64,000 nt of DNA from a virus. Both the position numbers and the translations under genes were made by a program. Positions 3,694 to 64,000 of the stretch are shown one piece after another. The notes below the pieces were generated by a model. It had not been told where the DNA came from. It saw nothing but the letters and a program-made list of their open reading frames with translations, and ran no database searches. The stretch's first letter is position 1. Each line of letters starts with the position of its first letter. The stretch spans positions 17,363-81,362 of IMG/VR virus record IMGVR_UViG_3300037010_002253. The stretch is one strand, 5' to 3'.

Positions 3694-3848
3694 GTCGTCC
3701 CAGTCTCCTGGATACCCGCCGTGTGGATGTCGCACTCCGACCCATCGGCGTCGTCACGCTCGACGACGATGACGAGACGATGGCCCGTCAGGGTCTCAAC
3801 CCTTCCCGTCCGCTCGTCCGTCACCATCACCGAGAACATGGCGTTCAC
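3618..3848 (-). CDS. Small hypothetical protein
   Basis: GTG start overlaps queE stop; sits between queE and folE. Confidence 0.4.
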   Translation of the reverse strand: MNAMFSVMVTDERTGRVETLTGHRLVIVVERDDADGSECDIHTAGIQETGTTCELLGDARSSLRREMQVPTTATRH

Positions 3849-4546: not shown

Positions 4547-4947
4547 CAGGCCAGCTCCTTCGTGGGAAGGACGATCTGCGCCCACGAGGTCTCCGTCTCG
4601 AAGACGGTGACGGATTCAAGGCCCACCTCCGCGTCCGCATCCATCGCCAGGAGAAGGCCGCAGACCTTGTCCACGATCCACGCCGCGATGTTCTCGGCGC
4701 TGGGGTTCTTCGCCTTGAACTCCGGCAGGTCGTTCAGGGTCTTGTGGTCGAGGGCGTTCCGCACGGCCTTGAGCACGTTGAAATCGAGGAGGAACCCGGT
4801 CTCGTCGAGCTTCTCCCCGTACAGGACGATCTCCGCCTTGTAGCTGTGCCCATGTAGGTTTCCGCAGGGGTGGTCGTTGGGCAGGCCCTTGAGGACGTGG
4901 GCGGCTTCCCACCTGATCGTCTTCCCGATTCTGTAGAGAGCGTTCAC
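4546..4947 (-). CDS. queD: 6-carboxytetrahydropterin synthase
   Basis: EAAHVL, CGNLHGHSY, LDHKTLND, NPSAENIA, VFETETS motifs. Confidence 0.95.
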   Translation of the reverse strand: MNALYRIGKTIRWEAAHVLKGLPNDHPCGNLHGHSYKAEIVLYGEKLDETGFLLDFNVLKAVRNALDHKTLNDLPEFKAKNPSAENIAAWIVDKVCGLLLAMDADAEVGLESVTVFETETSWAQIVLPTKELA

Positions 4948-5537
4948 TTGTCTTGCTCCTGTTCCCCATCCGGGAACGGCAGCTTCTCGATGTTGACGAT
5001 CTCCCGCACCATGCGGTGAATCGTCCCGTGTTCATCCCAGAGCACGCCGAAAGAATAGAACCAGCGGTGCTCGGATTCCAGGATGATCTCATTCCCTTCC
5101 GCGTCCCGCTGCCCGCCTTCGATGACGCGCACCTTCCAGCAGGCGGACTCCTTGTCCTTCGTGACCTCTTCGACGAGGAAAACGTGTTCATCCCCACCGC
5201 CATCCGAACCACCGCCGACGCGAACCCAATCACCAGGCTCCGGGAAGTCGTACCGCTCTCGAACCGCGTTGCTCGCTCGCGCGATGGTGGACAGGTTCGC
5301 CATCGCGAACCCCATGGTGTAGTAGCGGAGGACAGGGGACTGGAGTCCCATGAGCCGCAGGAACCCCGCGATGACGAGGGCGCAGCCGGAGGTCTTCTTG
5401 CCGGCGTAGTAGTCACGCATCCTCGGAGGGTCTTCCGGGGCCATCAGGAGGTCGACGTACCTCTCGCGTTGCTCCGTGACCCCGCAACCGATGAACAGCC
5501 GTGCTACCTCGACGATTCTTTCCCTGATGGTCGGCAT
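4944..5537 (-). CDS. Putative CHAP/NlpC-P60-like cysteine amidase (endolysin candidate)
   Basis: SGCALVI (Cys), PEPGDWV, EHVFLVE (His), VIEGG arrangement typical of CHAP. Confidence 0.5.
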   Translation of the reverse strand: MPTIRERIVEVARLFIGCGVTEQRERYVDLLMAPEDPPRMRDYYAGKKTSGCALVIAGFLRLMGLQSPVLRYYTMGFAMANLSTIARASNAVRERYDFPEPGDWVRVGGGSDGGGDEHVFLVEEVTKDKESACWKVRVIEGGQRDAEGNEIILESEHRWFYSFGVLWDEHGTIHRMVREIVNIEKLPFPDGEQEQDK

Positions 5538-5588
5538 CTCGCTACCCTTTCCTCACCCCGGCACTCCGGTGGAACAGGAGACACTCTA

Positions 5589-6281
5589 ATGCAAATCGCC
5601 TTGCTCAGCACCTCGAAGAAGGTACCGCTCGCGCTTCTCAGCAAGATCGCTTACGCGACCACCAAGCAGCTCAAGGAGTTCTGCGCGGATTGGGATCTCG
5701 CCGCGTCGTCCGTCATCCCCTGGGATGCGTCCGACCGCGCCTCCGCGCCGCCCACCCGCATCTGGATCGTCGACAGCGCGGCGGACCTACAGAACGCCCT
5801 CGGCGCCCACTGGATCGACCCCGACACGGGTCTCCCGACCGGCAAGGTCCTGGTGGACGTCATCCTCGCAAACGGGGGCACCCTCACCGATGGGCCCGTC
5901 TCCGTCTCCGCGATCGCGTCCCACGAGATCCTCGAGCTACGCGCCGACCCTTCCGCGAATATCAACGTCGCGATGCCCGACGGGAGAATGGTCGCCTACG
6001 AGTCGGCCGACCCTGTCGAAGACGGGGGGTACCCAGTCATCCTGCACGACCGCTCGCTCGTCTGGGTCTCGAACTACGTGCTCCCCGACTGGTTCAACGT
6101 GGGAAGCAAGACTCGTCGCTTCGACAAGATGGGGCTGCTCAAGGCGCCGTTCACAATGACCGACGGCGGCTACATGATCATCGACAACCAACCCGTCTTC
6201 GGCTTCGGGGTCCCAGAATGGAAGAAGGAGGCGAAGCTCACCCCCTTCTCCCGTACCGGACGCCGTCTCGTGACGGCCTAG
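5589..6281 (+). CDS. Putative zincin-like metallopeptidase (HExxE type); the only confident plus-strand gene
   Basis: AGGAG RBS upstream; ALGAHW, SHEILELRADP, YESADPVE, VSNYVLPDWF motifs. Confidence 0.65.
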   Translation: MQIALLSTSKKVPLALLSKIAYATTKQLKEFCADWDLAASSVIPWDASDRASAPPTRIWIVDSAADLQNALGAHWIDPDTGLPTGKVLVDVILANGGTLTDGPVSVSAIASHEILELRADPSANINVAMPDGRMVAYESADPVEDGGYPVILHDRSLVWVSNYVLPDWFNVGSKTRRFDKMGLLKAPFTMTDGGYMIIDNQPVFGFGVPEWKKEAKLTPFSRTGRRLVTA

Positions 6282-6517
6282 AAGAGCGACTCGTTCGCAA
6301 CCTTGTAGGCGAACTGGGCGACCTGCCCAAGGCGATGCTGGATGATCGTCAACTCCTCCTGGGCGTCATGCAGGTCCTCGGACAGCTCCAGGTACGCCGC
6401 CTGGAGCTGTTTGAGGTCCAGGCCGGCGATCTCCGCCGCGGCCTTCGCCTTGTTGAACTTGTTGAACTTGATCTCGGGGGCCGTGAAGAACGCCTTCTTG
6501 CTTGCCACGTGAATCAC
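6278..6517 (-). CDS. Small coiled-coil hypothetical protein
   Basis: ORF; GTGA overlap with upstream micro-ORF. Confidence 0.55.
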   Translation of the reverse strand: MIHVASKKAFFTAPEIKFNKFNKAKAAAEIAGLDLKQLQAAYLELSEDLHDAQEELTIIQHRLGQVAQFAYKVANESLF

Positions 6518-8820: not shown

Positions 8821-9129
8821 TCACGACCCTAGGGAGTACTTGATGACCTGGAGCTTGAGGACCGTCCGCTCGACCATCTCCTGCGTCTGATTGTCGCGGA
8901 AGTGAGTCATGTCGAATGCGGGAAGGAGGAGGTAGATGAACCCCGCAGGGGCCACCTTCCCGTTCGCGATGGCCGTCGCCTTCACCCCCTGGGAGATCGA
9001 GTGGACGCCGATACAGGACAAGTGAACCTTGCTGCCTTCGTCGTTGTATCGCACGATCGCCGTCGCGAGGTGCTGAACGTCCGTATCCGCCGCTACACGC
9101 AGCTCCTTCGTGTCCTCAGAGTTGTCCAT
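8821..9129 (-). CDS. spoVS: SpoVS-family (Alba-like) nucleic-acid-binding protein
   Basis: LRVAADTDVQHLATAI...CIGVHSISQGVKATAIANG matches SpoVS pattern (IGAGAxNQAVKAxAIARG). Confidence 0.75.
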   Translation of the reverse strand: MDNSEDTKELRVAADTDVQHLATAIVRYNDEGSKVHLSCIGVHSISQGVKATAIANGKVAPAGFIYLLLPAFDMTHFRDNQTQEMVERTVLKLQVIKYSLGS

Positions 9130-12995: not shown

Positions 12996-15869
12996 CTACT
13001 GCTTCGCCTTACCCCAGGACTCCCCGAACCCGATCTCCGCTGGCGTGTCGACGCGGAGGTCCTTGAAGCCGTACACGCGGTACGGGTGGCTGACGTACTC
13101 CTCGATGATCGGCCGGCACTCCTCCTCCGCGCCCTTCGGGACGTTGAACAGCAGCTCGTCGTGAATCTGAAGGGTCATCTCGACGCCCAGCTCCTCAAGT
13201 CGCTTGTCCGCGTCGATGAGCAGCATCGACATCTTCAATAGGTCGGCTGCACTTCCCTGGATGACGTAGTTGAACGCCTGCCGCTCCGCCCGCCTGCGCA
13301 ATCCCATCTCGTCGGAGTTGATGAAGGGGATGGCCACCCGACGCCGGAGGATGGTCCTCACGAACCCGTCCTGGCGAGCTCTGCGCTGGATCCGGTCGAT
13401 GCCCGACCTCATCCCCGCGTAGAGGTTGAAGAAGCCCTGCACCGCTTCCTTCCCTGCCTGCTCGCTGACGCCCGCCATCTGCGCGTACGTGCTCGGACCC
13501 ATCCCGTACAGGGTGTTCCCGACGACGCGACCCTCAACCGTGAAGCGATGCCGAGGACCTGCGTTCACGATGTCGTAGACCCGGGCGACCTGTTTCGGTT
13601 GTTGATAGAATAAGTGGTCAGCCTCAGATTCTGCGGCGAGTAGTGTCCATCGTTGTCGATCCGATCGAACACCAAGCCTTTGAAGGTAGAGTCCGACCAC
13701 TTCTTCAACGCCCAGCGTACGAAGTGCTCCCTCGACCGAAACAAGACCTTGATGCCCCTCCCCTTGTACCGGGGGGACGAGACATGCGTGTCCCTCTCGC
13801 ACCTCTGTACCATCGCGGCGTACCGACGACCGAGCATCGCCGCCCGGGAATCGTGGTACTTCTGCCCGCGCTGGCATCGGCAGTTCGTAGTTTTCCTCGC
13901 GCGAACGTTGTCCACTAGAAGCCAATGCTTCTTTTCGCACGCGGAGCACTCCGCCTCTACGTACCTTCTCGCCCTCGACCCCGGCCTCGCGCGCCGCTCG
14001 ACCTCGCCGGTCAAACGCATCGTACCCAACGGCAGCTTCCCCAGCTCCGCCAACAGCAAGTCGTCCGAAACGAACCGTGGATGCTGCGAGCCCGAACGGA
14101 ATCTTGTGTCCTTCATCGGTGTAGACCTCGTGGCCGAGAGTTGCGGTGAGACCATCGTAAGTGAGGACGGCCTTTTCACCCTTGAACACCACCCCCTCAT
14201 GGTGGACCCACTCTACCCCGTCCCATAGAAGATCGGAATCCTGAACTCGCTCGATTGGGACGAGGCCACGCTTCGTGAGAACCCGCTGGCCCTCCGCGAT
14301 GCAGCCGAAGTTGATCGTCTTGCTGCGCCGTCGCGCCTCGGGGAACTTCGCCTTGACCTCGTGCAGCAGGTCCCCGTCCACAGTCCGCGCTCCGACCCAG
14401 CGACGGACCTCCGAATCGATCTCGGTCGCCGTCAGGGAGTGCAAGTCCCACCCCCGGTTGATGGCGTTCAGCATCACCGCGTCGTTCGTGAAATGCGCCG
14501 CAAGACGCAACTCGATCTGGCTCAGGTCGATGTCCCCGACCACGCATCCATCGGGCGCGATGAACGCCTCGCGAATGTGGAAGGCGTCGTTCTCCATGGA
14601 CGGGATGTTCTGGAGGTTGTGCGCGGAGGACGACAAGCGAAGGGTCGCAGTTCCCGTCTGCTTGAGGTTGGTGTGGACCTTCCCGCCGTACTCACCGGCC
14701 GAGTGGATGAACGGCTCCACGTACGTTCCGCGCAACTTGTCCAGCTCGCGGTACGCCAGGATGATGTCCGCGATCTGCTTCGCCACTGGGTCCTTGAAGC
14801 TGGTCAGGGAATCGTCATCTGTCGACGGGAGGCCCGTGGGGGTTCGCTTCGCGATGGGCGTTCGGAGGTGGACCTCGAAGAGGTTCGCTACCTGCTTGGA
14901 CGACCCGAGGTTGAAGTCGGCGAGCACGTCATTAGAGACGCCGTACTTCTGGCAGGTGCGGAGGAACTCACTGACCGTATCCTCGATCTTCGCGTCGACC
15001 TGAAGCTTCATCTCCTCGAGCCGCACCGTGTCCACCCGACACCCGCGCCGCTCCATGCGGTAGAGGACCTGGGTGTAAGGTAGGTCGAACTGCTTGTAGT
15101 AGTCCCAGTAGGATTTGCCGTTGACCCACTCCTCCGCCTCCAGGGCGGCCCTAAGGACCTCGAACCCCATCAGGGAGAAGAGCGGGTCTTTGCAGGCGTA
15201 CGTGATGAGACGGTGGACGCCCACAGGGTCCTGCACCACCTCGTCGAGGTGGGGGACCTCAAACGTCTTGCTAGGTGTCCCGTCTCGCTTGAGCTTCGGC
15301 CGCTTGAACGTCTCGCTGTACTCGCGGATGGCACCCCACGTCTCGCCGAAGAGGGTGATGAGCTTGTACCCGAAGTACCTCTCCATGATGTGTTTCAGGC
15401 CGTGGTACATCTCGCCGCTCGCGGACAGCGTGTCCATGACCTGCGTGTCCCCCGCGAACCCATCGAGCGTGATCCCGTGGTTCCCGCAGACGTGCATGTC
15501 GTACTTGAGGTTCGACCCGACCTTGCCGATGTCGGGGTCCTCCAAGACGCCCTTGAAGTGGCGCAGGGTCCCTTCCCACGGCCCCCAGTTCGGGACGAAG
15601 ATCCGCGAGCCAGGAGCGCCTGGGTCGTACCCGCACGAGAACTGTGCGCAGATCGCGCGCGCCTTTCCTTTCGCGTGCTCCTTCCTCGGGTCGCATCCGA
15701 CCGTCTCGGTATCGAAGCCGACGACTTCCGCGTCCCGGATCATCCGAAGGGCTTGCCCAACCTTCTCCGGGGTATCAGTGATGAACGCCCCATCGACCTC
15801 GGGCAGCGTCGGTCCGCTGTAGTCGCGCCGCTTCTTGCGGCCGAGGTTCAAGTGCCACTGGTTTCCCAC
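12996..15869 (-). CDS. polA: Family A DNA polymerase with 3'-5' exonuclease, intein-containing
   Basis: FDTET exo I, TATLRLSSSAHNLQNIP, DLSQIELR motif A, RRRSKTINFG/TLYG motif B split by intein, QIHDELL motif C. Confidence 0.95.
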   Translation of the reverse strand: MGNQWHLNLGRKKRRDYSGPTLPEVDGAFITDTPEKVGQALRMIRDAEVVGFDTETVGCDPRKEHAKGKARAICAQFSCGYDPGAPGSRIFVPNWGPWEGTLRHFKGVLEDPDIGKVGSNLKYDMHVCGNHGITLDGFAGDTQVMDTLSASGEMYHGLKHIMERYFGYKLITLFGETWGAIREYSETFKRPKLKRDGTPSKTFEVPHLDEVVQDPVGVHRLITYACKDPLFSLMGFEVLRAALEAEEWVNGKSYWDYYKQFDLPYTQVLYRMERRGCRVDTVRLEEMKLQVDAKIEDTVSEFLRTCQKYGVSNDVLADFNLGSSKQVANLFEVHLRTPIAKRTPTGLPSTDDDSLTSFKDPVAKQIADIILAYRELDKLRGTYVEPFIHSAGEYGGKVHTNLKQTGTATLRLSSSAHNLQNIPSMENDAFHIREAFIAPDGCVVGDIDLSQIELRLAAHFTNDAVMLNAINRGWDLHSLTATEIDSEVRRWVGARTVDGDLLHEVKAKFPEARRRSKTINFGCIAEGQRVLTKRGLVPIERVQDSDLLWDGVEWVHHEGVVFKGEKAVLTYDGLTATLGHEVYTDEGHKIPFGLAASTVRFGRLAVGGAGEAAVGYDAFDRRGRAAREAGVEGEKVRRGGVLRVRKEALASSGQRSREENYELPMPARAEVPRFPGGDARSSVRRDGTEVREGHACLVPPVQGEGHQGLVSVEGALRTLGVEEVVGLYLQRLGVRSDRQRWTLLAAESEADHLFYQQPKQVARVYDIVNAGPRHRFTVEGRVVGNTLYGMGPSTYAQMAGVSEQAGKEAVQGFFNLYAGMRSGIDRIQRRARQDGFVRTILRRRVAIPFINSDEMGLRRRAERQAFNYVIQGSAADLLKMSMLLIDADKRLEELGVEMTLQIHDELLFNVPKGAEEECRPIIEEYVSHPYRVYGFKDLRVDTPAEIGFGESWGKAKQ
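13515..14303 (-). mobile_element. Intein (263 aa) in PolA motif B
   Basis: Starts CIAEGQRVLTKRGLVPIE (block A), TATLGHEV (block B), VYDIVNAGPRHRFTVEGRVVGN/T (blocks F/G; +1 Thr); removal restores KTINFG-TLYGMG. Confidence 0.92.
13565..14116 (-). CDS. HNH-type homing endonuclease nested in the intein, +1 frame
   Basis: CSAC...NCRC, YAAMVQRC, YKGRGIKV, DRIDNDGHYSPQNLRLTT...NNRNR phage HNH signature; GAGGT RBS 8 nt before ATG 14116. Confidence 0.85.
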   Translation of the reverse strand: MKDTRFRSGSQHPRFVSDDLLLAELGKLPLGTMRLTGEVERRARPGSRARRYVEAECSACEKKHWLLVDNVRARKTTNCRCQRGQKYHDSRAAMLGRRYAAMVQRCERDTHVSSPRYKGRGIKVLFRSREHFVRWALKKWSDSTFKGLVFDRIDNDGHYSPQNLRLTTYSINNRNRSPGSTTS

Positions 15870-15896
15870 GAAATGACTCCTTTTGCTTATCCGACG

Positions 15897-15925
15897 AAAA
15901 GAGGGGAACCCGTGGGTTCCCCTCT
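15897..15925 (-). terminator. Rho-independent terminator after SSB gene
   Basis: GAGGGGAACCC/GGGTTCCCCTC inverted repeat followed by TTTT on minus strand. Confidence 0.65.
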
Positions 15926-15942
15926 CCTCACCGCGCTACGTC

Positions 15943-16887
15943 TCAGCCCATGATCGTGTCGTCGTCCATGTCCTCCGTGTAGCTAGAGGTCGACGCGGCA
16001 TCCGGTCCGCCCGCGAACGGGTTGTCGATGCCGAGCTTCTCCGCCTGGGTCTTCGCCGACATCGGCTTGCAGACCGCGGGAAGATCCCACGGTTCAAGGT
16101 CGTCGAGCCAGTCGGGCTGCTCGCCGAACTCGTCCATGATGGGGTTGAAGGAGTAGGCCGTGGACTTCCCGCCGCCGGTCCGCTTCACGAGGATGGGCAC
16201 GTCGAAGATCGACCCGCGCTCGGGGCTCTTGCAGCCCGAACACGCGAGGATCTCGGTCACGCCTTCCGGCAGGTCCGTGGGGTCGTCCACGTCGACCTCG
16301 CGGCCCTTCGCGTCCTTGTAGCCGAGGACCTTGATCTTCCCCTTCTTGCAGGAGCGGCACCGCTTCGCCGCGATGTCGTTCGCGCCGGAGAGGGCCTGCG
16401 CCCACATCATCGACATCGAGTACTTCTTCTGGCCACCGCGCGACCGCTCCAGCTTCTTCTTGCAGCCGTCGCAGGTGTTCTTCCCGCCGACCTCCTCGTC
16501 GTACGTGCAGGCGGTCCAGGAGGTCTTCTCCGAATCCTGGCCGCGGAACTTGACCGTGGTCGTCTCCTTGTGGAACCAGCGGGAGTCCGCGACGTTGAAC
16601 GTCGCCTTCGGCGTCGGCTTCCCGACCCGCTTGTCGTTCCGCTGGTAGGCGAAGCAGGGAACGCACCCGAGATGACCCTCGTGGCCCTGTGCGCAGGTCA
16701 GGGTCAGGAACTTGTTCCCGCCGAGGCTGATGGTGTGATCGTGGTTGAGGTACGGCTCGGACGCCGTACCGTTGAAGTACAGCTTCGCTTCCTCGCCGTC
16801 GTAGAGGAAGAAGTTCGGTGCGTATTGCATCCGGTCACGCTTCATCTCGTCCGCGACCTTGGCTACCTGTCGAAAGTTGGGAGGCAT
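15943..16887 (-). CDS. Single-stranded DNA-binding protein (gp32-like) with several CxxC motifs
   Basis: Between primase and polymerase; VKRTGGGKSTAYSF; acidic C-terminal tail. Confidence 0.65.
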   Translation of the reverse strand: MPPNFRQVAKVADEMKRDRMQYAPNFFLYDGEEAKLYFNGTASEPYLNHDHTISLGGNKFLTLTCAQGHEGHLGCVPCFAYQRNDKRVGKPTPKATFNVADSRWFHKETTTVKFRGQDSEKTSWTACTYDEEVGGKNTCDGCKKKLERSRGGQKKYSMSMMWAQALSGANDIAAKRCRSCKKGKIKVLGYKDAKGREVDVDDPTDLPEGVTEILACSGCKSPERGSIFDVPILVKRTGGGKSTAYSFNPIMDEFGEQPDWLDDLEPWDLPAVCKPMSAKTQAEKLGIDNPFAGGPDAASTSSYTEDMDDDTIMG

Positions 16888-56882: not shown

Positions 56883-57190
56883 CAGCGCCCCTGGGATCTG
56901 CTCACGACGGCGAACTCCGCCTGGGCCGAAGCGAGCTGCGCCATCTCCGCGCGCGCCTTGTCCTCGTACGACTGCGACCGGACGGTGTCCGGGTGCGCGA
57001 GATCCTTGTAGTGATTCCGCCCGTCGAGCTGCGCGGGGTTGACCTGACCCTGGGAGGTCGACGCCGCAGCCGCGGCTCCCACCGTGAGGAGGGTGTCGAG
57101 GTAGAAGGGAGCGTTTCCCTTGTTCACCAGGACCGACGCGACCGTCGGTGCCCCGGGTACAGGCTGGTAGCTGCTGCCACCGTCAGACAT
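56882..57190 (-). CDS. Hypothetical protein
   Basis: Coupled ORF. Confidence 0.55.
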   Translation of the reverse strand: MSDGGSSYQPVPGAPTVASVLVNKGNAPFYLDTLLTVGAAAAASTSQGQVNPAQLDGRNHYKDLAHPDTVRSQSYEDKARAEMAQLASAQAEFAVVSRSQGR

Positions 57191-57197
57191 GACGCCC

Positions 57198-57647
57198 TCA
57201 CCCGTTCCCGACGATGTTGGCCCACTCCGCCTGGACCAGCGTCGCCGTCATCGGGGTGGCCGCGCCGCCCGCGGTGTAGTCGCGCGTCGTGGTCAGGACG
57301 TCACCGATGGCGATGTCGACGTTCGGATCCGCGAGGAGCCCCATCAGGTCGACGTGCTCCTTGATCGGGGTCGTCGGTCCGATGGAGTACGGCGCGGTGA
57401 GAATCGAGACGCCGTTCTTGAGGACATCGACCGTCATGCTCTCTCCAGCCCCGCACACGACCGACGTGATGAGGTAGAGGCTGTTGAGCTTGCCCGAGTG
57501 TCGCGCGATCCCACCCGACATGAGGACGCCCGCCGCGTCCGCCGGAGCAAGCTGCTCGGAACGTGCCGCGTGGAACTGACCGAGGAGTCGGGTGACGGTC
57601 GTGCTGTTGAACGGGGTGTGGAAGTCCCTGCGGCTGATCTTCGACAT
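57198..57647 (-). CDS. Putative structural protein
   Basis: TVDVLKNGVSILT motif common in phage virion beta-sandwich proteins. Confidence 0.55.
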   Translation of the reverse strand: MSKISRRDFHTPFNSTTVTRLLGQFHAARSEQLAPADAAGVLMSGGIARHSGKLNSLYLITSVVCGAGESMTVDVLKNGVSILTAPYSIGPTTPIKEHVDLMGLLADPNVDIAIGDVLTTTRDYTAGGAATPMTATLVQAEWANIVGNG

Positions 57648-57739
57648 GGGAGCTATTCTCCTTCTCGGACCCTATGCGCGCGAGAACCCCAGGACCGGAA
57701 TGGCCCTGGGGTCGCTCACGGATTCTTCGGGGATTCGTC

Positions 57740-59455
57740 CTACCATCGGCGAGCGTACCGACCGGCACGCCCGCTTGGCGACGAGGATCCGAGGGCACCT
57801 GCGCCCATGACCCCGCCGCCTCGCCTTTGCGAGCCGCCGCCCCCGAGAAGGGGCGCCGAGGAAACTTCCAGGTCCGGCATCACGGATGATTCTGCCATCT
57901 TCTCCGCCCAGGTGGCAAGACACGCGCTCGACGGATAGTCGTCGTGACCTCCCTCTGCGCCCTCGTACACCACCAAACCGCCAGAGAACATGCGGTCCAA
58001 GTCGAGATGTTCCTGGACGAAGCGAGTGTACTCGATTCGCTGTCGGGTCACTGGACCCGAGGCGTACTTGATGCGGCCCGCGTTCAACTCCTGCATGTAG
58101 TACTTCTGACAGATGTGTTTCGCGGTCGCTCCGGTGAAGCGGTAGGGGATGACGTTCACGCTTCCGCCGATCATGGCGTCGATGCGCTCATAGACAGGGT
58201 CTCCCATCGCCGTCGCATCGACCACCAGCACCGTGACGCCGGTCATCGAGAGGTAGCGCACGAGGGTCCTGTACTGCCCCTCGTCGCCCTCGAAGGTGCC
58301 CTCCATCTCCATCCAGTCCCAGATGGTCTTGTTGTAGTACATCTGGCGGTCGTCATCCGACTCCGGCAGGCGGTACTTGTTGATGATGGGCGTGTCCCTG
58401 TGGACCTCCATCAAGGTGAGGACGGTGCGGTCGTGGGACTTCGCCACGTCCAGACCCGCGACGAGTAGACCAGTGAGACGAGGCCCAGCCTCCGCAAGTC
58501 CTCGCCCTTCCTTCCCGTCGAGAGCGGCGCGCTCCATGAGGGCCGGCGTGATCGCGATGACCCGCGACTCCTGCCACAGGCACCGGAAGTTCATTTTGAA
58601 CTCCTCGGTGTCCACCCCGCCCAAGCGCATGATCTCCGACTGGACGAAGCGGTCGTAGTTCATGTGGAAGGGGTTCTTGTCCCGTGCATATGCGCGCTTC
58701 TTCTCTTCGCAGACGATACCGTATGGGAACTCGAAGTGGTTGCGCGGCCCGCCCTTCTCCTGGGCCTCGACGTTCTGTTGGATGGAGTGGTGGAAGCCCC
58801 CGCGAGACTCCCAGGCCGTTCCGATCTTCACCATCGTCCCGTTGGTCGAGGCGAGCATCGGTCGGATCTCCTTCTCCACCTTCGACCGCAGGAGCTTCTG
58901 TGCTTCCTCCGCCACGACCAAGTGATGCGTTTCGCCTTCGACCTGAGACATGGGAGACGCCGTGCGGGCGATGATCACGCTCCCGTTCGAGAACGCGATG
59001 GTGTCGCCGCGGCTCGCGACGACGACGATGTTCAGCTCGGGGTCCGAGAGGATCTCCGCGCAGTGCGGCCCCTCGACCCACTTCCGCATCCGGTTGAACG
59101 ACAGAAGTGACTGCCGTTCAATCGGAGCGTAGACCCCGACGAGGAACCCCTTATGGAACGGCATGAACCGCGGATCGTCCGGGAACGACCTTGCCAACTC
59201 GGGAAGAAGGACGGAGATGCCGAGGCAGACCGCCGCGATCGTCTCCGTCTTCCCGCTCTGCCGGCACCACAGACCTGTGATGGTCGCGCCGTCGTTGTTG
59301 AGCACCGACTCGATGATTCGCCGCGCGAAGAGAGCCTGGTACGTGTAGAGCGTCGTCTTCGAGAACTTCTCCAAGAAGAGAAGCACTCTATCTACCACCT
59401 CACGGGTCGTGAGCGGGCAGACCGCCTTGATCGCCTCAGGCTCCTTCGGTCGCAC
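57740..59455 (-). CDS. terL: Terminase large subunit
   Basis: YTYQ, CRQSGKTE Walker A, VAEEAQ Walker B, IGT, AGLDVAK, VDATAMGD, HDDYPSS. Confidence 0.93.
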   Translation of the reverse strand: MRPKEPEAIKAVCPLTTREVVDRVLLFLEKFSKTTLYTYQALFARRIIESVLNNDGATITGLWCRQSGKTETIAAVCLGISVLLPELARSFPDDPRFMPFHKGFLVGVYAPIERQSLLSFNRMRKWVEGPHCAEILSDPELNIVVVASRGDTIAFSNGSVIIARTASPMSQVEGETHHLVVAEEAQKLLRSKVEKEIRPMLASTNGTMVKIGTAWESRGGFHHSIQQNVEAQEKGGPRNHFEFPYGIVCEEKKRAYARDKNPFHMNYDRFVQSEIMRLGGVDTEEFKMNFRCLWQESRVIAITPALMERAALDGKEGRGLAEAGPRLTGLLVAGLDVAKSHDRTVLTLMEVHRDTPIINKYRLPESDDDRQMYYNKTIWDWMEMEGTFEGDEGQYRTLVRYLSMTGVTVLVVDATAMGDPVYERIDAMIGGSVNVIPYRFTGATAKHICQKYYMQELNAGRIKYASGPVTRQRIEYTRFVQEHLDLDRMFSGGLVVYEGAEGGHDDYPSSACLATWAEKMAESSVMPDLEVSSAPLLGGGGSQRRGGGVMGAGALGSSSPSGRAGRYARRW

Positions 59456-59463
59456 GAGTCACC

Positions 59464-59895
59464 TCAGGGAAGGAGAACGCATTGCTTGAACCGCGCCGGG
59501 ACCATCCCGTGAGTGCAGAGCACCTTCTCGTAGATCCCTCCCCGCACGCCGAACTCCCCGAGGGTCTGCATCCACTGGGGACTCAGCGCGGCTCGGATCG
59601 CTTCGTGGATCTCCTGCGTCACCGCCTCATGGAAGACGCCACGATCGCGGAAGCTCCAGAGGTAGAGCTTGAGCGATTTCGACTCCACGCACCAGTCCTT
59701 CGGGACATAGCGGATTCGGAAGGTCGCGAAGTCGGGCTGCCCCGTCTTCGGACAGAGGCAGGTGAACTCGGGGATGTAGAGGTCCACGAGGTTGCCGTGG
59801 ATCGGGTTCGTGAACCGCTCGAGACCATCCGCTCCGTGGGGGTGGTTCTTGTGCTCGCCGAGCTTGGTGATGTTGTCCGTCACGGCGTCCCCCAC
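59464..59895 (-). CDS. queF: NADPH-dependent preQ0 reductase (type I)
   Basis: PEFTCLCPKTGQPDFAT, QueF motif VESKSLKLYL, FHE, RGGI. Confidence 0.93.
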   Translation of the reverse strand: MGDAVTDNITKLGEHKNHPHGADGLERFTNPIHGNLVDLYIPEFTCLCPKTGQPDFATFRIRYVPKDWCVESKSLKLYLWSFRDRGVFHEAVTQEIHEAIRAALSPQWMQTLGEFGVRGGIYEKVLCTHGMVPARFKQCVLLP

Positions 59896-60587
59896 TTGAT
59901 ACCGTTTCGGACCGCCCTCTTGAGCGCTGGGTCCTCCGCGTTCGCCTCCGCGAACCCCTTCTCACGGAGAAGGCACGACGGGCACTTCCCGCACCCTGGG
60001 ACGTGTCCCTGGTAGCAGGTGACAGAAAGACCGACCGCCTCCCACGCCAGGGGACCGAGCTCCAGGGCCATCTTCACCGTCGCCGCCTTCGAGAGGTACA
60101 TGAGAGGCGTGGCGATGCAGAACTCCTCCAGTCCGTTTCCGAGACGGATGGACTCCGACAGCGCGTCCATCGTCGCCTTGCGGCAGTCCGGGTACCCGGA
60201 GTAGTCCGTCTCGCAGACGCCGAGCACGATCTCGCACCATCCGCGCGAGACCGCGATCCCGCCCGCGATGGCGCCGAAGACGACGTTGCGCCCCGGGACG
60301 AAGGTCGACGGGAGCCCCTGATGTCCCCCGTCCGCCTTGACCTCGATGTCCTTGCTCGTGAGGGCGCTGCGCACGCTCGTCCCGAACCCGGTCAGGTCGA
60401 TGATCATGTGCTCGACCTCAGCCAGCTCCGCGATCTTCAACGCCGCGCGCACCTCCGTCGCGTGACGCTGCCCGTAGTCGAAGGTGACCGCGAGGAGGTT
60501 CTCGTAGTGCTCCTTCGCCCAGAACAGGCAGGTCGTGGAGTCCTGACCGCCAGAGAAAACGACAACTGCTCCGGTTCTCTTACTCAT
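59880..60587 (-). CDS. queC: 7-cyano-7-deazaguanine synthase
   Basis: FSGGQDSTTC, FDYGQRH, STFVPGRN, YSGYPDCR, TPLMYLSK, TCY...CGKCPSC. Confidence 0.95.
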   Translation of the reverse strand: MSKRTGAVVVFSGGQDSTTCLFWAKEHYENLLAVTFDYGQRHATEVRAALKIAELAEVEHMIIDLTGFGTSVRSALTSKDIEVKADGGHQGLPSTFVPGRNVVFGAIAGGIAVSRGWCEIVLGVCETDYSGYPDCRKATMDALSESIRLGNGLEEFCIATPLMYLSKAATVKMALELGPLAWEAVGLSVTCYQGHVPGCGKCPSCLLREKGFAEANAEDPALKRAVRNGIKWGTP

Positions 60588-61308
60588 ATTTCACCCCAAG
60601 GTAGCGAAACGCCTTCTGTCGGTTGAGACACTGACAGCAGATGCCGCAGTTCACTTTCCACCCACGAATGCACGAGCTGGTCAGCTCGAGCGGCGCGCCC
60701 ACCTCCAAGCCCATCTGGACGATCTGGGTCCTGTCCATCCGCGCGTCGAGGAACGGCGCGTGGAAGGTCATCTCGGGCTCTTTCAGTCCCGCCGCGATCT
60801 CGTTGAGCTTGCCCACGAACCACGGGGACACGTCGTTCAGGGGAAGCTGCCCCTCGTCGTGCGCTCGCCACATGGGTCCGTCGCACTGGAACCCGAAGAA
60901 CGCCTTCGGCGGGGACATGCTCGGCGGTCGGTCCCGGAAGAAGACCATGTTCATTGCGATACTCGCCATCCAGAGGTGGAGGGCAGGCGTGTACGGGAAC
61001 GAGTTGAGGTCGGGCTCGTACCTCGTCACCGCAGGGACCAGGGACATCATCCCTCCCGCCTGCGGCGGCGCCTCGGGGCGCGGGTGTAGAACGTCCGAAG
61101 ACACGACCCGGACCACGGGACGCATCGTCGTGACCTTCTCCAGCGCGGCCAGGATGGGCCGAAGCGCGCGCTTCTTCTTCTCGTCGCCCACCGTCAACAG
61201 GAGAAGCTCGTCGCTTTTGGCGTCGATTCCGTACCTGTACGGGTGCTGCGCGAGGTCGAACGTGAGAACCGTGGAGTCGATTCCTCCACTGAAAAAGACT
61301 AGCGGCAT
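60580..61308 (-). CDS. Divergent QueC-like PP-loop ATP pyrophosphatase
   Basis: FFSGGIDS PP-loop and TSSC...CGICCQC zinc site, but YGQRH, VPGRN and YPDC motifs are missing. Confidence 0.8.
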   Translation of the reverse strand: MPLVFFSGGIDSTVLTFDLAQHPYRYGIDAKSDELLLLTVGDEKKKRALRPILAALEKVTTMRPVVRVVSSDVLHPRPEAPPQAGGMMSLVPAVTRYEPDLNSFPYTPALHLWMASIAMNMVFFRDRPPSMSPPKAFFGFQCDGPMWRAHDEGQLPLNDVSPWFVGKLNEIAAGLKEPEMTFHAPFLDARMDRTQIVQMGLEVGAPLELTSSCIRGWKVNCGICCQCLNRQKAFRYLGVKYE

Positions 61309-61309
61309 T

Positions 61310-61433
61310 CGGAGAGGCTACGCCGCTCGCTGGCGTAGGACAACCCTCCGCTGAATCGACCGGGCCCCCTTCGGTTAGGGTTTCGAGGGGCCGCTGGTCG
61401 GTCTCCTACGACGACCGCATCACGTCGTAGGAG
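61310..61433 (-). promoter_or_regulatory. Three-hairpin structured leader upstream of the queC-like gene
   Basis: Stems CTCCTACGACG/CGTCGTAGGAG; CGACC..GGCCCC/GGGGCC..GGTCG; CGGAG(A/G)GG..CTACGCC/GGCGTAG..CTCCG. Confidence 0.4.
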
Positions 61434-61439
61434 GGGCGG

Positions 61440-61721
61440 TCAGTTCCCGCCCTTGCTGAGCTGGAAATGGCGGACGCCGCCCTTGCCAGGCGCCCACGCC
61501 TCCGATCGCTCCGGAGGACCTGCGGGCAGGTCGGTGGGGGTCCAGGGCATACCGCCGCCCTTGCCCTTCTGGGACTCACGGACGAGCGCGGCGAGGTGCT
61601 GCAAGCGGGTCTGGACGGTCGCGCCGCTCTTGGTGCCGTGGTTCTCGTGTGCCATGTGCGCGCCGGTCACGCGCTTCGGGGTGAAGTTACCGGCCCGGAT
61701 CGGCTTCAGCGCTCGTGCCAT
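61440..61721 (-). CDS. Small basic hypothetical protein
   Basis: AGGAGG RBS before MARALK. Confidence 0.6.
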   Translation of the reverse strand: MARALKPIRAGNFTPKRVTGAHMAHENHGTKSGATVQTRLQHLAALVRESQKGKGGGMPWTPTDLPAGPPERSEAWAPGKGGVRHFQLSKGGN

Positions 61722-61772
61722 GTGAGACCTCCTTGTGGTCCCGGTGGGCGCCACGCCCACCTTGCAAGGAAA

Positions 61773-61800
61773 AGTCTACGAGTGCGGGAAGTTACGTCAA
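61773..61800 (-). promoter_or_regulatory. Sigma70-like promoter
   Basis: TTGACG-16 nt-TAGACT in an intergenic gap, A-rich upstream. Confidence 0.55.
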
Positions 61801-61828
61801 CTTTTCTCCACTACCTGAACGCCGTTGC

Positions 61829-62101
61829 TCACGTCTTCTCAGGCTCCCGCCCTGACGTGTCGATGGTAAATCGACCGGGCTTGCTTCCCTTGACCACGCC
61901 ACCCCTCCGCTCGTTGTAGGCGTTCGCGAAGTTCTGCTGCTCTGGGGTCATGTTCTCCACAGAGGTTCCGAGGGCAGCCGCGATCCTCCCGGTTGACTCC
62001 GCGCGGAGCTGCTCGCGCGCGGTGGTCGCGTTCCGCGCCGCGTCGGCCTGCTCCACCTCCACCATCAGGTCGATGAAGCCGCTGGGTCCGGTGTTGCTCA
62101 C
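61829..62101 (-). CDS. Hypothetical protein
   Basis: GTGA overlap with ART stop. Confidence 0.55.
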   Translation of the reverse strand: MSNTGPSGFIDLMVEVEQADAARNATTAREQLRAESTGRIAAALGTSVENMTPEQQNFANAYNERRGGVVKGSKPGRFTIDTSGREPEKT

Positions 62102-63084
62102 TTCGTCACCCGCTCCAGCTCGAGGACCATCAGGTTTCTGTCGATCTTGCCGTTGGTGGTTCCGTAGTACCGCCCCCTCACGCGGAAGGAGTCACCCTTC
62201 GGGAGCAGCACCTCTCGCTCCGCCGCGTACAAAGAGAGATGTTCCACAGCTACACCACGCGCACCGCGGAGCTCTAGCAAGACGCTGTACGGTCTGTCCG
62301 AGGTACTTGTGATGAACTGCTCCATGACCCGCGTGTCCCTCGTTGCTGACGTGATGGCTCCCAGACGCAGTCGATTACGGCCAGCAAGGTCAACGAACTG
62401 GTCCCGGGTCAAGTTCTTGAGCCCGCGTAGTAGGACGCCCGTGACTGGTTTCGCTTGCTCGGCAAGGACAGTGGAGACATCCGCGTGGTGGTTCATCACG
62501 TAGGAGGCGACGAGCTTCGCGGACACGTCCCTACCGAAGTGCTCCGCGTTGAATGTCTGACGGATCGACGCGTCGCCGCCCCAGAGGCGCTTCTCGATGT
62601 ACTCCTGGAGCTTCTCTCCACTCGCCCCACGGTCCACCATGCGGATCATCCGACACCAGTCGTCGTCCGTATACCTCTTCAGCGCAAGCTTCTCGTGAGG
62701 GAGTAGCTCGGGGTTTACGGGTCGCTTCGCGGTAAGGTGACCCTTCCAGACCCAGGACGTCTCCTCGGTGAGGTGCTTGTTCTCTTGTCTCATCCAAGAG
62801 GGAGAAGCGGTGGCCGGTATGTCCTTGTTCCTCGCAAAGAACCCAGGGTCAGCCTTCATGCTGGCGAGGTTTTGTTCCCCCCGCGCGCGCACCTGCTCCT
62901 TCGTCACGCGAAGTTTCGCAGGAGTGATCCCAAGTGCTTTCTGAATACGACCTACCGCTTCCTTGCGAGCCCCATCCGACAATGGAGAACCCAGGCTGCT
63001 GGGAGGGGTCCCGTAGACCTTCGCCCCCGACTTCGAGAAGTAGAAGCGTCCACCTCGGGGACCGATCTGGATGCCGCTGCTCAT
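62098..63084 (-). CDS. ADP-ribosyltransferase (VIP2/Alt-like R-S-E) with N-terminal GPRGG basic adaptor motif
   Basis: ALKRYT, LLRGL (R), ITSAT (S), AEREVLLPKG (ExE); IGPRGGRFYFSKSGAKVY N-terminus. Confidence 0.8.
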   Translation of the reverse strand: MSSGIQIGPRGGRFYFSKSGAKVYGTPPSSLGSPLSDGARKEAVGRIQKALGITPAKLRVTKEQVRARGEQNLASMKADPGFFARNKDIPATASPSWMRQENKHLTEETSWVWKGHLTAKRPVNPELLPHEKLALKRYTDDDWCRMIRMVDRGASGEKLQEYIEKRLWGGDASIRQTFNAEHFGRDVSAKLVASYVMNHHADVSTVLAEQAKPVTGVLLRGLKNLTRDQFVDLAGRNRLRLGAITSATRDTRVMEQFITSTSDRPYSVLLELRGARGVAVEHLSLYAAEREVLLPKGDSFRVRGRYYGTTNGKIDRNLMVLELERVTK

Positions 63085-63203
63085 ACTTCCAGCTCCTCAT
63101 CCACGTCTTCGTCTTCATCTTCGCCTGCGTACTCGTCGAGATCCTCCCCATCCGTGTTGAAGCGGTCCTGAAGCGCCTTTAGGTCTCGCTTGGGCGTGCT
63201 CAT
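63081..63203 (-). CDS. 40-aa highly acidic micropeptide
   Basis: MSTPKRDLKALQDRFNTDGEDLDEYAGEDEDEDVDEELEV; ATGA overlaps at both ends; GGAGG RBS. Confidence 0.65.
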   Translation of the reverse strand: MSTPKRDLKALQDRFNTDGEDLDEYAGEDEDEDVDEELEV

Positions 63204-63550
63204 GTTCGCCTCCAATATACCACGCTCCCTAGACGGAAATGAACCACTCGCTTACCGTTCTCGAGCCACGAGAGCAGCTCGGAGAGGAGGGACCTCCCGA
63301 TGAAGGGCTTGTTGTTCCGCCCCCACTCCTGGACGTCGCGATGAGCTCGGGTCTCGCTCAAGAAGTCGTAGACGGGCCTGGCCCAGTCTTCCCACCGGGG
63401 GTCGAGACCGGGGGGGAACTTCCCTCCGGTAGGGAAGCCGTCGCTTTTCTTTCGTCGCTGGCAGCTCTTGTGAACCACGCCCGCATTGTTGCCTCGATCT
63501 CGTCCCCGAGGTCGTTGAGCTTTCGCTTTCTTTCGAGACAGGCATCGCAT
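63200..63550 (-). CDS. Hypothetical protein (true start probably downstream of 63550)
   Basis: Stop coupled to acidic micro-ORF. Confidence 0.45.
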   Translation of the reverse strand: MRCLSRKKAKAQRPRGRDRGNNAGVVHKSCQRRKKSDGFPTGGKFPPGLDPRWEDWARPVYDFLSETRAHRDVQEWGRNNKPFIGRSLLSELLSWLENGKRVVHFRLGSVVYWRRT

Positions 63551-63603
63551 GGTTCGATCCCTACCGCCGCTGTGAGTTTCGCGATCCCATCGCCGATCTT
63601 CAC
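63358..63603 (-). CDS. Small Cys-motif protein (GIEPCDAC..RKRKLN)
   Basis: GTGA-coupled ORF; motif recalled from small phage proteins. Confidence 0.5.
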   Translation of the reverse strand: MKIGDGIAKLTAAVGIEPCDACLERKRKLNDLGDEIEATMRAWFTRAASDERKATASLPEGSSPPVSTPGGKTGPGPSTTS

Positions 63604-63818
63604 CGCTTGATCTCAGGCGAATAGAACTGGATGGTCTCGATCAGTCTGCCAAAAGCGTTCGGGTACGCTTCTGCCGCCGCATGGATCGTACGCGCCTGCT
63701 CGTCGTACTCCGCTCGGGTCAGGCCGCCCCTCTTCGCGAGGTTCTGAACGCGCGTGAGGGCAGCGGTCACCTTCGTCTCCCATTCCTGCTGCTTAGCGGA
63801 GCTGTTACGAGTTTCCAT
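63600..63818 (-). CDS. Small helical protein
   Basis: GGAG RBS before METRNS. Confidence 0.5.
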   Translation of the reverse strand: METRNSSAKQQEWETKVTAALTRVQNLAKRGGLTRAEYDEQARTIHAAAEAYPNAFGRLIETIQFYSPEIKR

Positions 63819-63999
63819 TGTGGATGTTCTCCATTCCGAAGTGCTGTCGAACGCTCGCCACCAGGTCCGCCGCCGCCGGGTTGCGCTCCCTGAACCACAG
63901 CGGGTCCGTGTGGTACGCAAGCCACGACTCCGCGAAGAACTCATGTGGGTCCTTCGCAGCGTACTTGGAGATGAGGCCCGTCTTCTTGTAGAGAGACTC
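63805..63999 (-). CDS. C-terminal fragment of anthrax-lethal-factor-like zincin metallopeptidase (truncated by window edge)
   Basis: Reads ...ISKYAAKDPHEFFAESWLAY..DP...ERNP; SxYA...ExFAE motif. Confidence 0.65.
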   Translation of the reverse strand, partial: ESLYKKTGLISKYAAKDPHEFFAESWLAYHTDPLWFRERNPAAADLVASVRQHFGMENIHNGNS

Positions 64000-64000
64000 T

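Follow-up and report, generated by a model that had tools for sequence, protein, structure and literature searches.

Why should a phage that already encodes a canonical QueC carry, directly upstream of that gene, a second and divergent gene of the same fold? The question is raised by a locus in a 64,000-nucleotide stretch of viral DNA (the window), which is part of the complete 81-kb, myophage-like genome of an uncultured phage. On the minus strand, a gene for a divergent QueC-fold PP-loop protein of 242 aa (60580-61308; hereafter, the paralogue) is followed by a canonical queC (59880-60587, 235 aa), by a unimodular queF for a preQ0 reductase (59464-59895, 143 aa) and by terL, the gene for the large terminase subunit (57740-59455; phrog_2, E 1.6e-17), which is the conserved downstream neighbour of this cassette. 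The three cassette genes overlap or abut: the stop of the paralogue and the start of queC share 8 nt (60580-60587, minus strand; ATGAGTAA), queC and queF overlap by 16 nt, and 8 nt separate the end of queF from the start of terL. The overlap between the paralogue and queC suggests translational coupling of the two genes. No terminator-like site was found on the minus strand within positions 57000-64000, no tRNA was found in the window, and Rfam gave no match in the window at the gathering score, hence no preQ1 riboswitch.

The QueC of the window scored 230.2 bits against PF06508 in Pfam (residues 7-215) and 211.7 bits against TIGR00364 in NCBIfam (cut-off 150.3), and it carries all of the canonical motifs, namely FSGGQDS, YGQRHATE, VPGRN, YPDC and C-x7-C-x2-C-x2-C. 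QueF scored 135.8 bits against TIGR03139 (cut-off 86.9) and 104.5 bits against PF14489, and its translation contains CPKTGQPD and ESKSLKLY. The paralogue matched the QueC models in part: with PF06508 it gave 53.9 bits (E 2.2e-14) over residues 159-236 only, and with TIGR00364 it gave 38.2 bits over residues 159-230 only, which is below the cut-off and fails the full-length equivalog test. The E-values of these family-model matches of the cassette genes reflect true homology and not chance.

What the paralogue has kept and what it has lost was read from the translations and from a multiple alignment of 131 sequences. It retains the PP-loop (FSGGIDS) and the Cys4 site (C213/C221/C224/C227), the latter with the same C-x7-C-x2-C-x2-C spacing as in the window's own QueC. 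At the position of YGQRHxxE it has TVGD--EK; at that of VPGRN it has TPALH, the Arg-Asn of VPxRN being gone; at that of YPDC it has LNDV, in which the Tyr and the Cys are gone and the Asp (D159) is retained; and C-I is present where QueC has a Tyr after the first zinc Cys. The first-pass annotation had described a canonical queC and queF preceded by a second QueC-fold gene that keeps the SGGxDS loop and the four cysteines and lacks YGQRH, VPGRN and YPDC. The open reading frames coincide exactly with the three genes that it delimited, the family scores and motifs agree with its gene assignments, and the translation and the alignment confirm the motif losses. In E. coli QueC, mutagenesis identified Y35, R99, Y131 and Y189 as essential for preQ0 synthesis, according to Libby 2026 (PMC13329287). 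As three of these four residues have no counterpart in the paralogue, simple redundancy with QueC is unlikely.

The AF2 model of the paralogue (pLDDT 77, pTM 0.80) gave structural Z-scores of 15.6 with QueC (3bl5), 15.1 with Cap9 and 14.9 with QatC, differences within 1 by which no nearest neighbour among the three can be named. YcfA, LarE, ThiI and the argininosuccinate and GMP synthases ranked next (Z 10-13.7), and no other PP-loop family comes as near to the paralogue family, in structure and in sequence, as the QueC/Cap9/QatC proteins do. The model has a pLDDT below 50 for residues 82-106, which lie near the putative pocket. Pfam found no domain other than PF06508 in the 242-aa protein, and a search for longer relatives returned no fused family members. 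This low-confidence loop and the lack of a fused form or extra domain as a hint have been counted against the tailoring reading set out below.

Is the paralogue conserved in its own right? Among 1.84 billion, 26 cluster representatives were found at E<=1e-30, and the ESM Atlas returned viral QueC-family clusters only. In the family alignment (A2, 29 sequences), SGGxDS and the four cysteines are invariant, as is the Asp at the YPDC position (29/29 in each case); the Arg of VPxRN is missing from all 29 members, and a Tyr at the YPDC position is found in a single one (P0018). In addition, the family has invariant or near-invariant positions of its own: P23, Y26, G27, N120, W147, D151, D159, N169, P185, R190 and P206. 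The reading frame is intact in every copy seen. Between the paralogue and its closest orthologue, in the related locus L004, the sole unsaturated pair (88% amino acid identity), dN/dS was 0.23. Compared with the same relative, the paralogue is more similar than QueC (68%) and QueF (59%), and in distant pairs it is more diverged (44%) than QueC (50-61%).

The family forms one branch in trees of 88 and 44 rows (SH-aLRT 95 and 97, respectively), and the branch between it and canonical QueC has 98-99% support. A clade uniting the paralogues with the phages' own QueCs was rejected by an AU test (44 rows, LG+G4; lnL difference 63.5, p=0.0065), the tested clade having been named after the first tree was seen. 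A recent origin of the paralogue by duplication of queC within this phage is rejected by this test; the paralogue is under purifying selection and belongs to a distinct clade that has invariant residues of its own.

The genomic context of the family was scanned with an alignment (A1) as the query. The order paralogue-queC-queF-terL was found in the phage's own genome and in L004, L005, L006 and L029, which are all five of the lineages having the paralogue with its flanks; L028 has the same arrangement as L029, looks like the same virus and was not counted separately. The synteny is fixed: in all five lineages, the paralogue lies directly upstream of queC and never occurs without queC and queF alongside. 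QueF was above the Pfam cut-off in the three relative records covered (G002, G003 and G004), and in L004 its identification is based on a tblastn match of 63% identity. The five contexts are also the closest TerL relatives (54-86% identity), which were found with a four-sequence TerL alignment, a single-protein TerL scan having found none. As the five contexts probably represent one inherited arrangement, the association with queF does not amount to independent events.

In L031 and L034, other, different QueC-family variants occupy the same position upstream of terL, a slot that seems to collect PP-loop genes. No conserved paralogue-specific partner besides queC and queF was found in the contexts of the relatives; an upstream gene, orf90, is present in L004, L005 and L029, is not present in L006, and is also present in L031, which has no paralogue. 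Of the 16 viral loci found, 13 (L007-L019) turned out to hold QueCs of the canonical type within ordinary clusters. When the single proteins P0035, P0017 and P0028 were used to scan viral contigs, no further contexts were found; metagenomes yielded only L021, a contig of 1,062 bp, and one canonical QueC; and a species-genome scan, made with one peptide pattern only, gave one canonical-type QueC of 26% identity. The absence of the family from cellular genomes is weakly supported.

Other genes of 7-deazaguanine synthesis lie on the minus strand near the start of the window: folE for GTP cyclohydrolase I (3043-3735; PF01227, E 3.6e-57), queD for CPH4 synthase (4546-4947; PF01242, E 1.4e-31) and, between these two, a queE-like gene for a radical SAM enzyme, the CDG synthase (3845-4585; PF04055, E 2e-11; PF13353, E 4.7e-11). 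Outside the window, at genome positions 15336-16505, is the gene for a DpdA-like protein of 389 aa (phrog_887, E 3.5e-27). This protein gave no match to the Pfam TGT family; it has distant homologues in Bacillus phage BCD7 and in Streptomyces phage BRock, both of which bear the annotation queuine tRNA-ribosyltransferase. FolE, QueD, QueE, QueC, QueF and a DpdA-like protein are found together in one genome, the combination that marks a phage system for 7-deazaguanine DNA modification (Hutinet 2019; Cui 2023). In support of the first-pass annotation, a full preQ1 pathway is present, along with a DpdA-like gene.

A second TGT-like protein, of 316 aa, was rejected as a candidate for a partner of the Cap10 kind. 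It matches only positions 351-482 of phrog_887, which is the C-terminal extension and not the barrel, and it has no similarity to the DpdA-like protein. The DpdM-type motif CxxxCxxCC is absent from all ORFs of at least 60 aa in the genome, and Pfam gave no formyltransferase match in the scanned ORFs; in respect of these two enzyme types, the tailoring reading set out below fits without a competitor.

How does the paralogue compare with the known QueC-fold systems? It resembles canonical QueC (TIGR00364; 3BL5, 2PG3) in its fold (Z 15.6 and 15.2, respectively), in its SGGxDS PP-loop and in its length of about 240 aa, and it shares the deazaguanine gene set with the window's own QueC. It differs from canonical QueC in having neither YxQxHxxE nor the Arg-Asn pair of VPxRN, in the loss of both Tyr and Cys from YPDC, and in having no Tyr behind the first zinc Cys. 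Cap9 of type IV CBASS (9NTO) is, like the paralogue, a small stand-alone QueC fold; it is both the best PDB sequence match of the family profile (9nto_B, E 4.8e-11) and the best Foldseek match (E 1.8e-07). As described in a preprint (10.1101/2025.04.06.647259), Cap9 passes adenylated CDG to another amine and not to ammonia. It retains the Y/FxQ, RN and YxDC motifs (PMC13329287), whereas the paralogue family is without them. The Cap9-type model PDLC00911 of PADLOC gave 43.6 bits with the paralogue, over residues 158-232 only (the zinc region), versus 48.3 bits with the window QueC, and in the scanned ORFs of the 81-kb genome neither CD-NTase nor Cap10 had a Pfam or PHROG match.

QatC of the QatABCD system (9Y01/9Y02; Z 14.9) is also alike in having the QueC fold, in keeping the PP-loop and the cysteine site, and in its remodelled substrate motifs; Libby 2026 (PMC13329287) has QatC losing the canonical motifs and still being proposed to use CDG. 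According to that source, it differs from the 242-aa paralogue in being approximately 400 aa long, in being extended at both the N and the C terminus and in having a distinct set of motifs. The QatC profile PDLC02214 (PADLOC) did not match the paralogue, only marginal zinc-motif matches of 16-19 bits being seen in two of the ten scanned proteins, and no qatA-, qatB- or qatD-like neighbours were found among the ORFs scanned. RoyL, a deazapurine amide-bond synthetase from the roseomycin A pathway of Streptomyces, is a divergent QueC homologue reported to couple adenylated CDG to the amine of an amino acid or dipeptide, with an amine pocket of Tyr41/His45/Glu48 and AMP-CDG contacts by Arg104/Asn105/Asp132/Cys139 (preprint 10.64898/2026.04.15.718813). 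When these residues are read as the canonical motifs, in a comparison by description only, the Asp alone is kept in the paralogue family; moreover, RoyL belongs to a bacterial secondary-metabolite cluster, whereas the paralogue is found in a phage. For a ligase that tailors small molecules, RoyL is the closest precedent.

Two phage-encoded variants, QueC* of Campylobacter phage CP220 (for which ADG synthase activity is proposed) and the Gat-QueC found in phage 9g, are linked to DNA bases that differ from dPreQ0. In BLASTP, QueC* (CPT_0114) matched the window QueC with 96.7 bits and 35% identity and the paralogue with 30.4 bits over 65 residues, in the zinc region alone; QueC* looks like an ordinary QueC, and the paralogue is no closer to it than to ordinary QueC. 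Gat-QueC has a fused glutamine amidotransferase domain, and the paralogue has no such domain. By these tests, the paralogue falls outside canonical QueC, Cap9, QatC, Gat-QueC and CP220 QueC*.

We propose that the paralogue is a working PP-loop ATP pyrophosphatase from an old branch that stands apart within the QueC superfamily. The gene would be transcribed together with queC and queF, and is probably coupled to them in translation, as part of a late operon running into the terminase gene. The enzyme would not make preQ0; it would use ATP to adenylate an intermediate of the 7-deazaguanine pathway, or an acid destined for joining to one, and the activated group would then be passed to a nucleophile other than free ammonia. 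Precedents for such a transfer, of adenylated CDG to other amines, are Cap9, QatC and RoyL. This tailoring step would take the base past dPreQ1 to a more highly modified form, for insertion into phage DNA by the DpdA-like transglycosylase. Such an ATP-dependent tailoring ligase of the 7-deazaguanine pathway is the most likely reading, and a tentative one, in which we infer the catalysis, the deazaguanine link, the substrate and the product. N-acylated preQ1 and N-substituted 7-amido-7-deazaguanine are candidate products. Since all members of the family are without the VPxRN Arg, a residue that E. coli QueC cannot do without and that is given as an AMP-CDG contact in RoyL, CDG may not be the substrate. 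The first-pass annotation had inferred that the paralogue adenylates a different substrate, with a novel preQ1 derivative in DNA or a protein-bound deazaguanine as the outcome; the motif loss makes a different substrate a possibility only, QatC having lost these motifs too while being proposed to use CDG. The further claim, that with the paralogue a new class of DNA tailoring in phages begins, in which a QueC-derived, ATP-dependent ligase makes an undescribed 7-deazaguanine base for installation by DpdA, is possible, if somewhat unlikely.

Other explanations have to be weighed against this tailoring ligase. The chance that the gene is a decaying or redundant queC duplicate without a function of its own, the outcome that the first-pass annotation had set against its own proposal, is negligible. 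Although the match to QueC models is weak and partial and distant pairs of paralogues are more diverged than those of QueC, the frames are intact, the 26 representatives share family-specific invariant residues, dN/dS is low, and the AU test speaks against such an origin; that the gene is a conserved, enzyme-like paralogue of the QueC fold is upheld by the same representatives, residues and dN/dS. It is also conceivable, though on balance unlikely, that the paralogue is a partner of QueC, either in a hetero-oligomer or by carrying out one ATP step only (CDG to ADG, or ADG to preQ0), tuning preQ0/preQ1 flux with no new product. The paralogue is always directly upstream of queC, and the 8-nt overlap favours equimolar synthesis of the two proteins. 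QueC acts as a homodimer (3BL5). A homodimer is likewise reported for the Cap9 core (10.1101/2025.04.06.647259), and, from the alignment, the lost carboxylate-side Arg would fit a carboxylate-free substrate such as the amide ADG. However, the adjacent QueC has the full signature and should manage both steps alone, three of the four essential E. coli residues are not kept in the family, and the strictly invariant PP-loop speaks against a purely structural subunit.

The loss of the canonical substrate motifs could also point to a PP-loop enzyme outside deazaguanine chemistry, for example one that adenylates the carbonyl group of a base, be it in a nucleotide, in tRNA or in DNA, in the manner of TilS, ThiI, GMP synthase or YcfA, its link to queC being one of ancestry and operon history. 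The Z-scores of 10-13.7 with YcfA, LarE, ThiI and the argininosuccinate and GMP synthases, and the differing variants in the terL-upstream slot of L031 and L034, are consistent with this. Such an enzyme is nonetheless decidedly unlikely, the family being closest to QueC/Cap9/QatC in structure and sequence, keeping the QueC-type Cys4 site and the YPDC Asp, and having queC and queF alongside in five of five lineages. Very unlikely, finally, is protein deazaguanylation as for Cap9 and QatC, in which a protein of the phage or its host would receive CDG at the N-terminal amine, for instance so that a phage protein is primed or so that host systems relying on this mark are disturbed. The phage itself makes CDG, Cap9 is the best PDB sequence and Foldseek match, and QatC is a precedent for CDG use after loss of the canonical motifs (PMC13329287). 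But the PADLOC Cap9 model does no better on the paralogue than on the window QueC, and there is no QatC match; no CD-NTase, QatA, QatB or QatD-like neighbour, no paralogue-specific conserved partner besides queC and queF and no protein target was found, and the second TGT-like match covers only the C-terminal extension of the profile and not the barrel.

In phage DNA, 7-deazaguanine modifications protect against restriction enzymes and, in vitro, against Cas9; Cui/Hutinet 2023 describe eight derivatives. Table DS1 of that work gives one QueC entry per phage for every phage, and no description of a phage QueC paralogue beside queC and queF was found in the literature covered, which took in this table and the text of Libby 2026. 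In each case known so far in which the QueC fold has been put to another use (Cap9, QatC and RoyL), new chemistry came to light. The paralogue family adds a fourth remodelled branch, one with a fixed place next to queC and queF in phages of a lineage without a known dPreQ1-tailoring enzyme. It provides a specific candidate, amenable to cloning, for a new base or adduct and a test case for a specificity change of the QueC pocket, and it may add an undescribed step to preQ1 DNA chemistry. If the paralogue does represent a new tailoring class, its product would be the ninth or a later natural deazaguanine DNA base; if it is a helper of QueC only, it would be part of the first two-subunit form of QueC.

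The cassette lies on the minus strand and has the gene order that the first-pass annotation had described: a 242-aa QueC-fold gene (the paralogue; 60580-61308) precedes queC (59880-60587) and queF (59464-59895). The open reading frames were recovered at these positions, and QueC (211.7 bits) and QueF (135.8 bits) exceed their NCBI equivalog cut-offs (150.3 and 86.9, respectively), whereas the paralogue falls below the QueC cut-off, with 38.2 bits over the C-terminal third only. The paralogue and queC overlap by 8 nt (ATGAGTAA) and queC and queF by 16 nt, 8 nt separate the queF end from the terminase start, and no terminator-like site was found on the minus strand within 57000-64000. As read from the sequence, the paralogue is probably co-translated with QueC and QueF. 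The 131-nt gap 5' of the paralogue (61309-61440, minus strand) carries two GC-rich hairpins: CCTACGACG/CGTCGTAGG follows directly on the stop of the gene before, and CTACGCC/GGCGTAG separates a GGAGG from the paralogue ATG; this start is without a Shine-Dalgarno sequence at the usual distance. Three genes upstream, near the genome end, a 328-aa protein (62098-63084, minus strand) resembles ADP-ribosyltransferases at its C-terminal end (PF01129, 26.3 bits), and its residues 203-326 match the related viral locus L004 at 36% identity.

The window covers bases 17363-81362 of a complete viral record (81,362 bp; 100% by CheckV estimate), in which an exact terminal repeat of 127 bp is present. GC content is about 64%, and almost every gene is encoded on the minus strand. 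By its Pfam and PHROG matches this is a phage with a contractile tail (portal, terminase, sheath, gp19-type tube and gp25-type baseplate) that encodes its own DNA polymerase (family A), primase, DnaB-like helicase and RecA. The folE, queE and queD genes (3043-4947, minus strand) lie 55 kb from the cassette, and a 389-aa DpdA-like protein is encoded outside the window (genome 15336-16505); it matches phrog_887, "queuine tRNA-ribosyltransferase" (E 3.5e-27), has no Pfam TGT match, and is 23-26% identical to its closest cultured-phage homologues. With folE, queE, queD, queC, queF and a DpdA-like gene, the phage thus carries the genes that dPreQ1-containing DNA would be expected to require. No DpdM-type Cys motif was found in ORFs of at least 60 aa across the whole genome, and no scanned ORF had a Pfam formyltransferase match. 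Also outside the window, a 316-aa Cys-rich protein (genome 12203-13153, minus strand; locus L003) matches a queuine tRNA-ribosyltransferase PHROG at the C-terminal extension only (positions 351-482 of 509) and is not similar to the DpdA-like protein; its homologue in the related genome G002 sits in a 522-aa frame. A SpoVS-like protein (PF04232, E 2.1e-12; 8821-9129, minus strand) is encoded amid early or replication genes.

In an alignment of the paralogue with 130 other QueC-family sequences, the earlier reading that it keeps the PP-loop and Cys4 site without the substrate motifs held: FSGGIDS and C-x7-C-x2-C-x2-C are retained, while VGD--EK stands at the YGQRHxxE position, TPALH at VPGRN, LNDV at YPDC, and Ile at the Tyr following the first zinc Cys. 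The family consensus is TPGLH at the VPxRN position and xNDT(S) at the YPDC position. According to Libby et al. 2026 (PMC13329287), Y35, R99, Y131 and Y189 are each essential in E. coli QueC; the family has a different residue at three of the four, the first position being variable.

When 1.84 billion cluster representatives were searched exhaustively with phmmer, 839 matched at E<=0.001 and 26 of these reached E<=1e-30; the full-length ones are 35-50% identical to the paralogue, and one, a 78-aa fragment, has exactly the query's sequence. Below a score gap, the next, ordinary QueC-like matches begin at E 1e-15 and worse. A word-indexed search gave ten members (P0001-P0010), all from metagenome-type sources and none bearing a name; no match above 26% identity was found in 50,697 cultured-phage records, none in species genomes scanned by one pattern, and a search for longer relatives found no fused members. 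Fifteen residues are invariant in the 29-sequence family alignment (S7, G8, G9, D11, S12, P23, D159, P185, P206, S212, C213, C221, G222, C224 and C227), and L15, D18, Y26, G27, L37, N120, W147, D151, N169, R190 and T210 are conserved in 27-28. Against the closest orthologue (L004, 88% amino acid identity), dN/dS is 0.23, a value from this pair only, as dS is saturated in the others. The paralogue belongs to a distinct family; that it is a decaying duplicate, the objection raised in the first-pass annotation, is contradicted by the 26 representatives, the invariant residues and the dN/dS, and is very hard to credit. For the same pair, QueC is 68% and QueF 59-63% identical, although they lie between paralogue and TerL genes that are far more alike (88% and 86%); recombination, or a higher rate of change in the canonical pair, may be behind this.

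Trees were built with FastTree (141 rows) and IQ-TREE (quick, 88 rows, LG+C20, omitting P0016, identical to the L005 copy, and fragments P0026 and P0033), and with LG+G4 (44 rows). The family falls on a single branch (SH-aLRT 95 and 97 in two IQ-TREE trees) and groups with two other divergent sets, "CVWS" and "CEF", the latter including a gene from the relative L034, beyond a 99% branch. The QueCs of the five phages make up a separate clade (support 99), nested in the canonical side (support 98). A tree constrained to unite the family with these phage QueCs, a group chosen after the first tree was seen, is worse by 63.5 log-likelihood units (p-AU 0.0065, 44 rows); the paralogue is therefore not a recent copy of the adjacent queC.

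Pattern scans of IMG/VR yielded three further members with flanks (L004, L005 and L006; 89%, 42% and 43% identity), and a TerL-alignment scan added L029, of whose virus L028 is apparently a partial record. The order paralogue, queC, queF, terL holds in all five lineages, window genome included; QueF is bona fide in the relatives' genomes G002, G003 and G004, and G002 (92% complete) also has the DpdA-like gene (62% identity). Four remoter TerL relatives (L031-L034; TerL 47-53% identity) lack the family; L026, cut inside queC, is left out of this comparison. The association with queF is consistent, yet probably represents one inherited arrangement. Other QueC variants flank terL upstream in L031 (3194-3979) and on both sides in L034 (3834-4532 and 7126-7794), and in one of them, of a "CEF..CGxCxQC" type, GQ and RN are retained and YPDC is not; PP-loop genes seem to accumulate in the slot beside the terminase. 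In L005 (7481-9910; genome G002), QueF and the large terminase share one 809-aa frame with no stop between, which may be a natural fusion or an assembly error; the window genes are separate. The L033 terminase matches in two pieces (3771-3956 and 5001-6404) about 1 kb apart, suggesting an intron, intein or inserted endonuclease gene.

The AF2 model of the paralogue (pLDDT 77, pTM 0.80; residues 82-106 unmodelled) matches QueC (3bl5 and 2pg3, Z 15.6 and 15.2), Cap9 (15.1) and QatC (14.9) as tied closest structures, followed by YcfA (13.7) and LarE (11.8); Cap9 is the top match in both Foldseek (E 1.8e-07) and a profile-to-PDB sequence search (E 4.8e-11). The PADLOC models for Cap9 and QatC match the zinc region only, no better than they match normal QueC; Gat-QueC has an amidotransferase domain, which the paralogue lacks; and CP220 QueC* scores 30 bits to the paralogue versus 96.7 to the window's QueC. 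RoyL amide synthetases retain the canonical pocket residues (preprint 10.64898/2026.04.15.718813), of which, by RoyL's published description, the family has the Asp only. The paralogue lies outside every named QueC branch compared by model, domain or sequence; the comparison with RoyL, made by description, is indirect. A 2026 survey divides PF06508 into ten clusters, none of which matches the family as the text describes them (PMC13329287), and neither the literature searched nor table DS1 of Cui/Hutinet 2023 gave a phage in which queC and queF are accompanied by another QueC-type gene.

The paralogue combines a QueC fold and an invariant PP-loop and zinc site with a pocket that has been remodelled and is kept under purifying selection. 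Enzymes of the PP-loop type activate a carboxylate or carbonyl oxygen by adenylation, after which AMP gives way to a nucleophile. This nucleophile is ammonia in QueC. It is a protein N-terminus for Cap9 (preprint 10.1101/2025.04.06.647259) and QatC (PMC13329287), and an amino acid or dipeptide for RoyL (preprint 10.64898/2026.04.15.718813). A protein deazaguanylation enzyme like Cap9 and QatC is improbable here, and an unrelated PP-loop activity only marginally less so; a partner of QueC, or an enzyme of a half-reaction, is unlikely, if somewhat easier to entertain than either. We tentatively favour, at rather less than even odds, a ligase that acts in deazaguanine tailoring, whose product would be a base further modified than dPreQ1. 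The Asp that is kept may point to a guanine-like ligand, and the loss of the Arg to an activated group, or a mode of binding it, unlike that of CDG in QueC. The paralogue family is a good candidate for new chemistry.
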